From Gammaproteobacteria bacterium (GTDB lineage: Bacteria > Pseudomonadota > Gammaproteobacteria > Pseudomonadales > Halieaceae): a stretch of 64,000 bases of DNA. Below the pieces are notes generated by a model, which saw only the letters and a program-made list of their open reading frames with translations, did no database searches and was not told the DNA's origin. Positions 48,104 to 63,930 of this stretch are shown here, in pieces; positions within the stretch are counted from its first letter, which is position 1; each line of letters begins with the position of its first letter. The stretch covers positions 3,193 through 67,192 of the forward strand of contig JAUIEP010000006.1 of the NCBI GenBank assembly GCA_030428835.1, written 5' to 3'. The translations under genes and the position numbers were made by a program.

Positions 48104-49810
48104 GTGGAAAAACAAACAATTCTGATCATTTCCGAGGAGCAGACGGACCACCTGATCCTCGCCGCCAGTCTCGAACGCGCCCGCCCACAGCGTTTCCAGA
48201 TGGCGACCGCGGAGTCGATGGAACGCCCCCTCGACGCACTGCTCGATCCCGCAATCGACGTCGTGATCATGGCCCATGGCCCACAGACCGAGTACCTGTT
48301 GCGCCTCGCCGCCAAGAACGAGGCCGCTGCGCCCATCATCGTGCTGCTGGATGAGGCGAACGACCAGACAGGGAAGCAGTTGCGTGACCTCGGCGCACAG
48401 GACTACCTCGTGCGCGGCCAGTTCCAGGACGCCCTGCTGCACCGCATCCTCGACTACAACGCGCAGCTCAAGCGCGCCCGGGAAAAAATCCAGCAACTGT
48501 CCAACCGTGACCCACTGACCGGTGCGCTGAACCGCGTCGGCTTCCGCGCGCACCTGGAACGCGCGATGGGCCGCTCCGCGCGCTACGGGTTCAACACCGC
48601 GTTGCTGTATATCAACATCGACCAGTTCGCCAACGTCAACGATCACTACGGCGAAGCGGACGGCGACGTGATGATCAAGTCCATCTCGCGGCGGCTGATC
48701 AACAAGATGCGCAGTACCGACAGCATCGCCCGCCTCGGTGGCGACGAGTTCGCCGTCGTGCTGGAGGATGTCAATTCCGCCCAGGACGTGGAGCAGATCG
48801 CCGAGAAAATGCTCAAGTCGATCGCCGCCCCGATGATCCTCTCCGACCAGCAGGTCGCCGTGGAGGCCAGTATCGGCGCCGCGATCTACCCGGAGGACGG
48901 CAAGGAGTTCGCCGACCTCGTGGAGCACGCACGCTCGGCGATGCAACAGGCCAAGACGATCCAGGGCGGCCAGTTCATCCGCTACTCCGAAAAGCTGACC
49001 TTCGACATCGCCGGCGGTAATTCACTCGCCGCCGAACTGCGTACCGCGGTGCGCAAAAACCAGTTCGAACTGCACTACCAGCCGCGCATCGACCTCGGCA
49101 CCGGCCACCTTGTGGGCCTGGAAGCACTGCTGCGCTGGAACCATCCCGAGAGGGGCCTGGTGGCACCGGGCGAGTTCCTGGTGGCCTGCGAGGACATGGG
49201 GCTGATGAAGACCATCGGCTACCAGGTCATCCAGCACGCCTGTAACGCACAGGTGTGGCTGGAAGAACAGAAGCTGCAGGGCGTGGACGTCGCCGTGAAC
49301 ATCTCCTTCTCGCAGATCCAGGACGACCGCTTCGTGGAAATCGTGAAGGACATCGTCCAGCGCAGCGGCGCCGACGCCTCGCGCCTGGAGTTCGAGCTCA
49401 CCGAGTCGACGATCCTGAAAAGCCCCGCCGGCATCAAGGCCCGGATGGACGAGCTGCGCGAAACCGGCATCTCGTTTTCACTGGATGACTTCGGTACCGG
49501 TTTCTCGCAGCTCACGCACCTCACGGAACTGCCGATATCGGCGCTCAAGATCGATGCTGTGTTTGTGCGTGACCTGACCAGCAACGAACACCAGGAAACG
49601 GTCTGCTGCATGATGATCGAGATGGGTCGACGCCTCGGGATGACCGTGATCGCGGAGGGCGCCGAAACGCACGAGCAGATCCAGTTCCTGCGTGAGAACA
49701 ACTGCCACCAGGTGCAGGGCTACTACTACAGCCCCGCCATTCCCCTCCAGCAGCTGCCCCGTTTCGTGCAGGACCTGCGCCACAAGCGGCAGGGCAAGCT
49801 GCTCTCCTGA
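48104..49810 (+). CDS. Pseudo-receiver-GGDEF-EAL protein
   Basis: REC-like N-terminus without the phospho-Asp; RSTD...RLGGDEF; LEALLRW; SLDDFGTG; AEGAE. Confidence 0.88.
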   Translation: MEKQTILIISEEQTDHLILAASLERARPQRFQMATAESMERPLDALLDPAIDVVIMAHGPQTEYLLRLAAKNEAAAPIIVLLDEANDQTGKQLRDLGAQDYLVRGQFQDALLHRILDYNAQLKRAREKIQQLSNRDPLTGALNRVGFRAHLERAMGRSARYGFNTALLYINIDQFANVNDHYGEADGDVMIKSISRRLINKMRSTDSIARLGGDEFAVVLEDVNSAQDVEQIAEKMLKSIAAPMILSDQQVAVEASIGAAIYPEDGKEFADLVEHARSAMQQAKTIQGGQFIRYSEKLTFDIAGGNSLAAELRTAVRKNQFELHYQPRIDLGTGHLVGLEALLRWNHPERGLVAPGEFLVACEDMGLMKTIGYQVIQHACNAQVWLEEQKLQGVDVAVNISFSQIQDDRFVEIVKDIVQRSGADASRLEFELTESTILKSPAGIKARMDELRETGISFSLDDFGTGFSQLTHLTELPISALKIDAVFVRDLTSNEHQETVCCMMIEMGRRLGMTVIAEGAETHEQIQFLRENNCHQVQGYYYSPAIPLQQLPRFVQDLRHKRQGKLLS

Positions 49811-49822
49811 CACCGCGCCAAT

Positions 49823-63700: not shown

Positions 63701-63930
63701 GCGTCGAGTATGACAAGGAGACGGATTCCGAGTCTCTGGTGATAATCGTAAGGGATAGTGGGGAAGGAATTCCTGATGACGCCATCGAAACAGCCGCCCC
63801 AGGTTCTGGCATCGCGCTCGTGCAATCGCTGGCAGCCAACATCGGGGCGGAGTTCAGCTACTCCTACAGCAAAGGCACCATGGCGAAGATCACCCTGAAG
63901 GACTCCCAGAGCAACCCCATCTTCGCGTGA
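60766..63930 (+). CDS. Beta-propeller + Y_Y_Y sensor with HisKA_2-like kinase core and degenerate H-box
   Basis: Propeller repeats (NFWVGT, GIWLGT, GNVWIGT); VEYRYRV; TM; ELARNAITHAYP, RDSGEGIP, GSGIALV. Start may be ATG 60829. Confidence 0.85.
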   Translation: MAITLDHSFYLQNLKDGALKRMGAVISAALCALVCLTTTVKTNSDEDHYAQYETWITNHLGNILITALHLDRFDNFWVGTEDNLFILRGPSSVDRRQLDPRVRTALSRGVTDIAEDEYGNVFVSTFGNGIIEFNPSSGHLSQKRQIAQVDVSHTQRIFAFSNGLLWLVTRDGVHIVKSYHQELLLDESAERVREIVGLVHSVDRISDGRFVVGGENAIVSIDLNTKGLTTNVLSNDIENSQAKITSSLMFSDQKVFFGTSTGRLGWYDIENGEITSPSEAQLVGNPRILEIKNYGKNLAISTDYGVVIYNEELTRTREIVSGNHFSSSTYISTLLVDDINLWIGTLSGVQLIRAPAFRLYTSVDGLESDDVLHIEEDDSGGIWLGTFNGLYYYDSINRTHTRVDQNASWPETYPKRISALEFSERQLLVGFIQGHGILRIDLDSLKAQPLATFDKQYLNVLELKKHESELWIGTHGQGLIRHSQASTTRYLDSKIFPYSSVNEIVPLQDGRIALATIDRAFILEENRHDYIEISLETSSDLPTPDILDIFEDKAGNVWIGTAGDGLYLAGRESLASGTPTAEKYRFDSSLDFDHITNICSVESGEFWISAGNRVASFFPFDKELKFFDSNDGLPKTNISIGSALCSTTGALFYGSGKGYSHSARTPSFRKERFRISLVDLQIDGKSVVSSFPSPAPNRISIAAHELPLEINLAVSDYLDPNYVEYRYRVSSQKNDWVYHKGSNQLRLDHLSLGLQSIYIQAANSQGVWSDEQLTLQIFVHRSPWNTWWAYALYSLAIAFSFWGAHRIYYSYIAERRSQELTIEIEETRNRAEDEIQEQLEFHDELARAAHQHHGSILKLLQRCLNETLSGSENAPSPESVQASPNYLQALSLLEDCTIYDEGEVSINLRVFVEKLFPSIMPYCRVDPATIITVNEVKADPITLEIGTTLGVIIYELARNAITHAYPQNSPANYLRVISRVEYDKETDSESLVIIVRDSGEGIPDDAIETAAPGSGIALVQSLAANIGAEFSYSYSKGTMAKITLKDSQSNPIFA

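Follow-up and report, generated by a model that had tools for sequence, protein, structure and literature searches.

Genes and features of the locus

A stretch of 64,000 nucleotides from a gammaproteobacterium of the family Halieaceae (contig JAUIEP010000006.1, positions 3,193 to 67,192; hereafter the window) was studied for a group of genes on its forward strand (Table 1). From their sequences, the conserved core of this group was found to consist of four parts: a Sec-exported S8A subtilase (S8), a polypeptide of short tandem repeats containing tryptophan (REP), a hybrid sensor kinase with a double-propeller/Y_Y_Y sensor and an Hpt domain (HK1), and a REC-GGDEF-EAL response regulator (RGE). 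The core is a real and widely conserved module, and apparently an undescribed one. An original prediction, made from the letters of the window alone, had placed these genes and read their domains and the 13-residue repeat; all of this was borne out by the calls of open reading frames (ORFs), Pfam and Tandem Repeats Finder.

REP contained, from the N- to the C-terminus, a signal peptide of the Sec type (about residues 1–27, ending in ...SLSMA/DS), the leader motif VHR(V/I)SHxLA, two degenerate GNRW units and six units ending in GNRWRR. Eight GNRW motifs were present, six of them within near-identical 13-residue units (SDIAEQAGNRWRR) that were devoid of cysteine, and the 39-nucleotide copies of the tandem array matched each other at 94% (Tandem Repeats Finder score 350). 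REP had no match among the families of Pfam and NCBIfam. Twenty close homologues were found, a profile search of 1.84 billion protein representatives yielded 153 clusters at 50% identity, and the repeat is thus not a chance feature but belongs to a real protein family. The relatives contained a signal peptide, the V-H-R-V-S-H-x-L-A motif and 2–3 degenerate G-(Y/N)-K-W-G units, followed by 2–21 near-identical units; the repeat period was 13 residues in 62 of the 67 orthologous REP genes and the conserved core of the unit was (D/E)-Q-x-G-(Y/N/S/F)-(R/K)-W-G. The repeat sequences diverged strongly between lineages; the partner genes were conserved. The stop codon was located exactly three residues past the last tryptophan in 43 of 51 complete REP genes, and two residues past it in the window; since the stop sits at such a fixed short distance, REP ends at a unit boundary. 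The motif W-G-R-R, which resembles a Gly-dibasic processing site, was found in many relatives. AlphaFold2, run on a shallow alignment of 15 sequences, modelled the entire protein as disordered, with a predicted local distance difference test (pLDDT) of 44 and a predicted template modelling score (pTM) of 0.10. With this pLDDT and no secondary structure in the model, a folded domain made of the repeats was rejected. The database gene call for REP (P0001, 219 residues) starts at the ATG at 55233, which falls within the conserved promoter. The ATG at 55350 is supported as the true start by the signal peptide, by conservation and by the position of the Shine-Dalgarno sequence.

S8 contained a signal-peptide-like N-terminus, a subtilisin-type N-propeptide, an extra beta domain of about 130 residues, the catalytic domain and a C-terminal extension of about 110 residues. 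The catalytic residues D257, H297, N403 and S495 were invariant in the aligned orthologues. Pfam gave no match to the beta domain, which lies between the propeptide and the catalytic domain, or to the C-terminal extension (112 residues). In a sequence search of PDB the nearest solved relatives were Tk-SP of Thermococcus and classical subtilisins, which points to the S8A type. The AlphaFold2 model of S8 (pLDDT 83, pTM 0.87) retrieved ProN-Tk-SP and pro-subtilisin E in a fold search, and both of these structures contain the propeptide. A kexin-like protease (S8B) was rejected, because the closest structures were S8A, a P-domain was absent and the C-terminal 112 residues had no Pfam match. The C-terminal extension carries a single repeat-like unit, R-x-W-G-V-K, in which R614, W616, G617 and K619 were invariant in 44 orthologues. 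This unit resembles the REP unit core (Y/N)(R/K)WG(I/V/R)(R/K) and is a candidate autoprocessing or pseudosubstrate site. S8 starts 8 nucleotides after the stop codon of RGE, and because of this close spacing the two genes probably form an operon.

HK1 was found to contain an N-terminal signal/transmembrane segment, a periplasmic double Reg_prop propeller with Y_Y_Y (about residues 25–795), a transmembrane segment, and HisKA (855–919), HATPase_c (967–1084), REC (1233–1347) and Hpt (1401–1480) domains. The Pfam E-values were 2.5e-53 for Reg_prop and 1.3e-15 for Y_Y_Y, and the propeller sensor occupied about 770 residues between two hydrophobic segments. The motifs MSHEIRTP and FMDCQMP and an Hpt domain with HAIKSMSANLGA make up a His-Asp-His relay that is complete by sequence. 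The database call for HK1 (P0142, 1436 residues) leaves out the N-terminal hydrophobic segment, which is conserved in the orthologues. RGE reads as intact, with GGDEF, EAL, DDFGTG and the acidic pocket of REC, and contains no transmembrane or HAMP segment; it is the presumed final phospho-acceptor and the presumed output through cyclic di-GMP (c-di-GMP). The second propeller protein, HK2, contained only Reg_prop/Y_Y_Y and a C-terminal HATPase_c domain, and Pfam recognised no DHp, REC or Hpt domain in it. The GGDEF-EAL protein at the start of the region contained a receiver-like N-terminus without the phospho-acceptor Asp.

REP is preceded by a 330-nucleotide spacer with promoter-like elements (TTCAAT, 17 nucleotides, TGTAAT) and the conserved start region GTCAAGC at 55238–55244. 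Just upstream of the promoter was found an operator-like inverted repeat with the family consensus ACCCCAAAAAGG(G/T)T, also referred to as the ACCCCAAAAAGGGT box, which a pattern search placed at a fixed 42–43 nucleotides from GTCAAGC in about 85 Halieaceae-type loci. The box of the window itself contains too many mismatches for this pattern and was taken directly from the sequence and the alignment. A TATAAC-like -10 element was present between the inverted repeat and GTCAAGC, and the inverted repeat looks like an activator site beside the promoter; among the genes of the cluster there is none for a DNA-binding regulator. In the leader, which is about 110 nucleotides long, two small hairpins are conserved, and the Shine-Dalgarno sequence is AAGGCAGGA. 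The hairpins, which were named by hand, were 76% and 72% paired with compensatory changes; their covariation score exceeded that of all 500 shuffles and the in-register structure was far better than slid controls. The RNAalifold consensus of the leader was weak, with one 4-bp stem. A riboswitch or other known RNA before REP was rejected, as Rfam gave no match and the RNAalifold signal was weak, with the hand-named hairpins moderately supported.

REP is separated from HK1 by a terminator-like hairpin with a stem at 55979–55998, of which direct reading gave a longer form, AAAAGCCG...CGGCTTTT. Because of the promoter-like spacer before it and the terminator-like hairpin after it, REP is probably its own transcription unit. 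Metatranscriptome contigs spanned the leader and the 5' part of REP from about 55260, and none spanned the ends of the neighbouring genes; these contigs are short, come from relatives only and do not show transcript ends reliably, and they lend weak support to a separate expressed REP transcript.

Table 1. Features of the region in window coordinates, with the evidence for each
Feature	Position	Strand	Evidence
GGDEF-EAL protein	48101-49810	+	Pfam, ORF list
Polytopic membrane GGDEF protein	49823-51097	-	Pfam, ORF list
REC-GGDEF-EAL response regulator (RGE)	51159-53024	+	Pfam
Secreted S8A subtilase (S8)	53033-55018	+	Pfam, PDB sequence search, alignments, AlphaFold2, fold search
Lone repeat-like R-V-W-G-V-K unit (residues 614-619) of the C-terminal extension of S8	54872-54889	+	Alignments
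Operator-like inverted repeat TGCCCAAAACAGGGCA	55180-55195	+	Alignment and direct reading
Promoter-like elements, conserved GTCAAGC and leader of about 110 nucleotides	55206-55349	+	Sequence, alignment
Putative repeat precursor (REP), 180 residues	55350-55892	+	Sequence, homologues
Tandem array, 5.4 copies of 39 nucleotides	55677-55886	+	Tandem Repeats Finder
Intrinsic-terminator-like hairpin and T-run	55970-56009	+	Hairpin search, direct reading
Hybrid sensor kinase HK1, 1493 residues	56109-60590	+	Pfam
Second propeller/Y_Y_Y membrane protein HK2, 1054 residues	60766-63930	+	Pfam

Conservation and rearrangement of the core

One genome per GTDB species was scanned with the S8 alignment, which gave 297 relatives, and the neighbourhood counts were taken from the Halieaceae loci. 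The best 80 of the 297 relatives were all full-length proteins of Halieaceae with 47–77% identity, from Halioglobus, Haliea, Parahaliea, Pseudohalioglobus, Sediminihaliea, Chromatocurvus and Luminiphilus. RGE was located directly upstream of S8 in 76 of 77 loci, and a Trp-periodic repeat gene followed S8 in 53 of the 54 loci with enough sequence. In 35 of 49 loci REP was followed, in the same orientation, by an HK1 orthologue (32–53% identity, mostly 40–53%; full-length where the contig allows), after which an HK2-like gene was usually present. A look-up made from a kinase 36% identical to HK1 led to the whole cluster, in the order nadA, RGE, S8, REP, HK1 and HK2, and then to unrelated genes. 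In the S8 tree the kinase-less loci formed one Halioglobus subclade, which indicates a single loss; the lone exception (L057) had lost REP as well. In the window a DUF3604 gene (45785–47863, reverse strand) separates nadA from the first GGDEF-EAL gene, and those Halioglobus relatives that carry the kinases have it at the same place (67–80% identity); the kinase-less clade contained instead a more distant DUF3604 paralogue (32–35% identity) downstream of the repeat gene.

A further match of the REP profile was to the C-terminus of P0401, a protein of 871 residues from Thalassotalea aquiviva, which belongs to a different order. P0401 is a protease of the same S8 type (36% identity to the window S8 over residues 5–617), and the same polypeptide continues with some 25 copies of a 13-residue unit, DGTLWGKVKYLEx. 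The alignment of the two proteases stops at ...YSDNRVWG in the window and at ...YTDGTLWG, the first repeat, in P0401. The T. aquiviva locus (L089) contained the S8-repeat fusion, 149 nucleotides, a Reg_prop/Y_Y_Y hybrid kinase with REC and Hpt, 17 nucleotides, and a REC-GGDEF-EAL gene. The kinase was 32% identical to HK1 over the whole length and the RGE-like protein was 30% identical to RGE across the REC and GGDEF domains. The locus was flanked by dksA, pcnB, folK and panBC, and no nadA was found there. T. aquiviva is one example of the low-GC marine gammaproteobacteria, unrelated to Halieaceae, in which the four parts recur with the repeats fused to the protease.

A metagenome scan ranked on P0401 was made for further fused loci, and S8 with a fused Trp-repeat tail was found in many low-GC (guanine + cytosine) marine loci. 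The units of these tails contained 6, 11, 12, 13 or 17 residues (DGYVWT, EAFMWD, DTALWS, AGFIWNLSSPEN, QGLLWTYGDVEN, DGVVWHNDSMKSGDETV). Both a propeller hybrid kinase and a REC-GGDEF-EAL gene were present in ten metagenomic fused loci (L095, L096, L100, L102, L108, L109, L114, L124, L126 and L142); in L091, L113, L158 and L163 the kinase was present and REC-GGDEF-EAL was not detected in the sequence covered. Most of the fused tails ended in a conserved ...N(V)WV(D/E)QE, which looks like a recognition or sorting tag. Two or three tandem S8-Trp-tail paralogues, each with its own 6-residue unit, were found in L092, L125, L126 and L131; the units of the L092 paralogues were, for example, WNEGSF, WGDSYL and WIEGSL.

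The identities of 30–47% in the fused loci and their host-like GC argue against recent transfer from Halieaceae. The linkage of protease, repeats, kinase and response regulator survives altered gene order, altered context and fusion or fission, and it is for this reason strong evidence that the four parts are functionally coupled. The original prediction had named conservation of the gene neighbourhood as a way to check its proposal, and this test was positive: throughout Halieaceae, S8 and the repeat are found together with REC-GGDEF-EAL and the propeller kinase that bears Hpt. Co-occurrence elsewhere, on which that proposal also depended, was seen where the genomic context is unrelated, with the parts rearranged and fused. 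The interpretation given in the original prediction is partly supported.

HK2 and both of the c-di-GMP enzymes encoded upstream, which the original prediction had counted among the parts of the system, were seen only in the Halieaceae-type arrangement and are lineage-specific accessories outside the core. HK2-like genes (22–44% identity) come after HK1 in Halieaceae loci, and none was seen in the fused loci inspected. The upstream GGDEF-EAL gene was missing from some Halieaceae-type loci (L007 and L171) and from the fused loci, and full-length tblastn matches to the membrane GGDEF protein were found in only a subset of the Halieaceae loci.

The start of the kinase genes coincides exactly with a fall in GC content, from about 0.63 to about 0.45, and the GC content of third codon positions was 0.47–0.48 in both kinase genes of the window, whereas it was 0.77–0.87 in every neighbour. 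The kinase block had a lower GC than its flanks (about 0.39–0.53 against 0.49–0.67) in nearly all Halieaceae genomes that carry it; in two Luminiphilus loci it equalled the flanks, and the kinases of the fused arrangement had host-like GC. A recent foreign insertion of the kinases was rejected, since HK1 orthologues of 40–53% identity occupy the same place in 35 loci, nearly all of low GC. With such low identities among the orthologues and a vertical-looking gene order, the anomaly is long-lived; selection for low expression or silencing, and repeated replacement, are possibilities for its persistence.

Two other parts of the window were conspicuous. The region 9723–19117 (reverse strand; GC 0.59–0.61, lower than the surroundings) looks like a defence island. 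One of its proteins strongly matched PDC-S01, a candidate defence family (E = 1.8e-161); the others were a ResIII helicase, a DNA methyltransferase resembling type III, and an SNF2-helicase/PLD protein with weak DrmD and DpdE matches. The region 40001–42000 showed a strong AT skew (0.36), and the long forward-strand ORFs 39639–40916 and 40958–42475 had no Pfam match.

Proposed mechanism and alternative explanations

The linkage points to a signalling module that is most likely peptide-based. In the model that we favour, which is plausible and to which we give a little less than an even chance, the subtilase would act on the Trp-repeats, the propeller kinase would read the result and a phosphorelay to RGE would set the level of c-di-GMP. 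The unfolded repeat protein and the protease would meet outside the cytoplasm, where the protease would cut the array once per unit into many short Trp-peptides, which in the window would be of about 13 residues and contain EQAGNRW. These peptides, or the change of the repeats from intact to cut, would be read by the propeller sensor of HK1, and phosphate would pass from His to Asp to Hpt and on to the receiver of the REC-GGDEF-EAL enzyme. The resulting shift in c-di-GMP turnover would switch the cell between the surface-attached and the motile state. An action of the subtilase on the repeats is suggested by the fusion, the motif shared with the S8 tail, the disordered, precursor-like anatomy of REP and its end at a unit boundary. 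Transfer from Hpt to the receiver of RGE is suggested because the relay of HK1 lacks a terminal receiver and the two genes are directly adjacent in the fused arrangement. The anatomy of the parts and their linkage are established, whereas cleavage, ligand binding, the phosphotransfer partner and the physiological output are inferred from gene and domain content; the peptides may be shared between cells or may act within the periplasm of one cell.

A more specific form of this model, which we hold with greater reserve, is a prohormone-like signalling in Gram-negative bacteria. The precursor would ancestrally have been the C-terminal tail of the protease and would have split off in Halieaceae as a separately regulated gene, and its peptides would be the ligands by which HK1 sets c-di-GMP. 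The divergence of the units, which range from 6 to 17 residues and are unrelated around one tryptophan, would then represent a pherotype-like diversification of signal and receptor.

Several observations weigh against the favoured model. The Halioglobus subclade mentioned above keeps REP, S8 and RGE without HK1 and HK2 at the locus, and the high-GC lineages L092, L097, L098, L129 and L168 contained S8 with a Trp-tail and neither kinase nor RGE; L098 lies beside pyruvate-dehydrogenase genes and L092 comprises three tandem S8 paralogues. In L172 a propeller-Hpt kinase of similar identity was not linked to S8. Sec signals are the only ones on the protease and on REP, so that release past the periplasm is conjectural, and general porins are narrow for a peptide of 13 residues. 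The repeat types do not conform to one cleavage rule: the residue three positions past the tryptophan was R, K, N, S, T or G, the 6-residue units were devoid of basic residues, and where the window units carry RR the relatives contained IR, LK, RS, RT, IN and others. Finally, the characterised Reg_prop/Y_Y_Y sensors bind glycans or oligosaccharides, as in the hybrid two-component systems of Bacteroides.

This last point counts for another explanation, which we regard as possible though on the unlikely side. The Trp-repeats would be an appendage or client of the protease (a C-terminal pro-region, a surface or particle anchor, an inhibitor or a sacrificial substrate), the kinase would sense some other cue, such as glycans or marine-particle products, and the linkage would reflect co-regulation of protease deployment and a c-di-GMP switch. 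The fused form is widespread and stands alone in the high-GC lineages without kinase or RGE, its usual ...N(V)WV(D/E)QE terminus looks like a part of the enzyme, and one Halioglobus clade lost the kinases and kept REP and S8. Against this explanation, the repeats of Halieaceae are encoded by a gene apart from S8, which has a signal peptide, a conserved promoter, an operator-like box and a terminator to itself. AlphaFold2 gave REP no folded domain, no glycan-utilisation genes were consistently adjacent in the loci inspected, and the four-part linkage survives rearrangement and fusion or fission. The logic could also be inverted, with the intact repeat protein, possibly multivalent and clustering the propellers, as the ligand that the protease destroys, and the kinase reporting the activity or availability of the protease as a timer or for signal-quenching. 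The same components and the same linkage would serve this explanation as well as the favoured model; 2–21 identical units facing a many-bladed double propeller would fit multivalent binding, and a protease fused to the repeats would use its tail for docking. A fixed stoichiometric fit is, on the other hand, hard to reconcile with copy numbers that vary so widely, and we consider the inverted logic improbable.

Still less probable is that REP is the precursor of effector peptides without a signalling role, such as Arg/Trp-rich antimicrobial or adhesive peptides, whose production alone the kinase and c-di-GMP genes would regulate. The units GNRWRR of the window and GYRWGIR of many relatives are rich in arginine and tryptophan, a composition typical of short cationic antimicrobial peptides, and a multi-copy precursor with a protease would fit effector production. 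However, the fused units are acidic or neutral (DGYVWT, EAFMWD and AGFIWNLSSPEN, for example), so that a positive charge is not a conserved property; acidic and polar residues belong to the conserved part, (D/E)Q-x-G-x-(R/K)-W-G; and no immunity or export genes were found within the cluster. An inherited synteny without functional coupling was already disfavoured and has the least to commend it of all. The whole Halieaceae region is indeed syntenic, including nadA and an M48 peptidase gene, but the four parts recur in distant lineages in another order, with other flanks and with a gene fusion. The pairwise distances of S8, HK1 and RGE also correlated with each other (r = 0.55–0.65) more than with those of NadA, in what is a weak mirror-tree measure.

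Comparison with known systems and significance

No description of the four-part module was found in full-text searches of the literature. The nearest bacterial precedent is given by the Phr/CSF pro-peptides of Bacillus, which are exported by Sec and which the subtilisins AprE, Epr and Vpr cleave once they have left the cell. The layout of the module is compatible with this: its precursor is Sec-exported and unmodified, and the secreted S8A subtilase encoded next to it would presumably cleave it beyond the cytoplasm. The Phr peptides are single-copy, re-imported by Opp and bound by cytoplasmic Rap/RRNPP receptors, whereas the module contains a tandem multi-copy array, sometimes fused to the protease, a periplasmic propeller kinase as the candidate receptor and a c-di-GMP output, in a Gram-negative host. 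No Rap, NprR, PlcR or PrgX-type TPR receptor and no Opp genes were found in the window cluster or the related loci.

The original prediction had likened the group to the agr and com systems of Gram-positive bacteria. The likeness to agr and ComCDE holds for the layout, in which a precursor and its processing enzyme are joined by a membrane histidine kinase and a response regulator, but the components that define those systems are all absent. Pfam found no AgrB-type endopeptidase in the cluster genes and none was listed in the neighbour gene tables; the repeat units have no cysteine for a thiolactone, and the candidate receptor HK1 is not of the polytopic HPK10 type. REP carries a Sec signal peptide and not the double-glycine leader of ComC, and no ABC transporter or ABC-C39 processing exporter was found in the cluster. 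The response regulator of the module is a c-di-GMP enzyme and not a LytTR-type transcription factor.

The combination of a signal peptide, tandem identical units and an S8 protease is the same as in the multi-copy propeptides of eukaryotes (yeast alpha-factor/Kex2, FMRFamide-type precursors and the Kex2-processed repeat proteins of fungi). Unlike kexin and the prohormone convertases, the protease of the module is S8A without a P-domain; the basic unit ends are not conserved and the receptor type is unrelated. No amidating enzyme was seen in the loci. The cyanobactin pathway is alike in that the multi-core precursor PatE is cut by the S8 proteases PatA and PatG. It is, however, a cytoplasmic pathway with heterocyclase, macrocyclase and recognition sequences, none of which is present in the module, and the NCBIfam match of S8 to PatA/PatG was far below the threshold (31 bits against a cut-off of 421).

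On the side of the receptor, the hybrid two-component systems of Bacteroides and AbfS of Cellvibrio likewise contain a periplasmic Reg_prop and Y_Y_Y sensor fused to HisKA-HATPase-REC. In contrast to the Bacteroides systems, HK1 ends in Hpt and not in an AraC-type DNA-binding domain, and its neighbours are S8, REP and RGE and not SusC/SusD or glycoside hydrolases. The placing of an Hpt-bearing hybrid kinase beside a c-di-GMP enzyme with a receiver domain resembles the pairs RocS1 and RocR, PleC/DivJ and PleD, RpfC and RpfG, and VieS and VieA. By domain content the module is thus a phosphorelay to a c-di-GMP enzyme, and what is new is the protease-plus-repeat input with a propeller sensor, which has no described counterpart. 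The Lap system (LapD/LapG/LapA) differs: LapD is an inner-membrane HAMP-GGDEF-EAL receptor of c-di-GMP, the protease that it sequesters is a periplasmic cysteine protease and the target is a giant adhesin, whereas the module contains RGE, which has no transmembrane or HAMP segment, the serine protease S8 and the 180-residue REP.

A protease with a very similar layout has been reported from Pseudomonas aeruginosa. SprP (PA1242) contains a signal peptide, a domain of about 233 residues of no assigned family, the S8 domain and a C-terminal extension, and an sprP mutant showed aggregation, more biofilm and loss of motility (PMC3937732). These phenotypes are c-di-GMP-like. The catalytic positions are E262/H299/S499 in SprP and D257/H297/S495 in the window S8; the likeness is one of domain layout, and in contrast to the module no repeat protein or propeller kinase is mentioned for SprP (PMC3937732).

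The linkage alone defines a new family of Trp-repeat polypeptides and gives a context to a large uncharacterised clade of subtilases, and the cultured hosts include Halioglobus japonicus, Parahaliea maris, Pseudohalioglobus lutimaris, Haliea alexandrii and Thalassotalea aquiviva. If the favoured model is true, the module would be the first peptide-ligand two-component circuit of its kind in Gram-negative bacteria, and a peptide instead of a glycan would be the class of ligand for a Reg_prop/Y_Y_Y sensor, a type that is very widespread and poorly understood. It would represent a bacterial parallel to the processing of multi-copy propeptides by S8 proteases in eukaryotes, and it would be a direct link from proteolysis outside the cell to c-di-GMP in bacteria that are abundant on marine particles (Halieaceae/OM60-NOR5 and Alteromonadales-like lineages).

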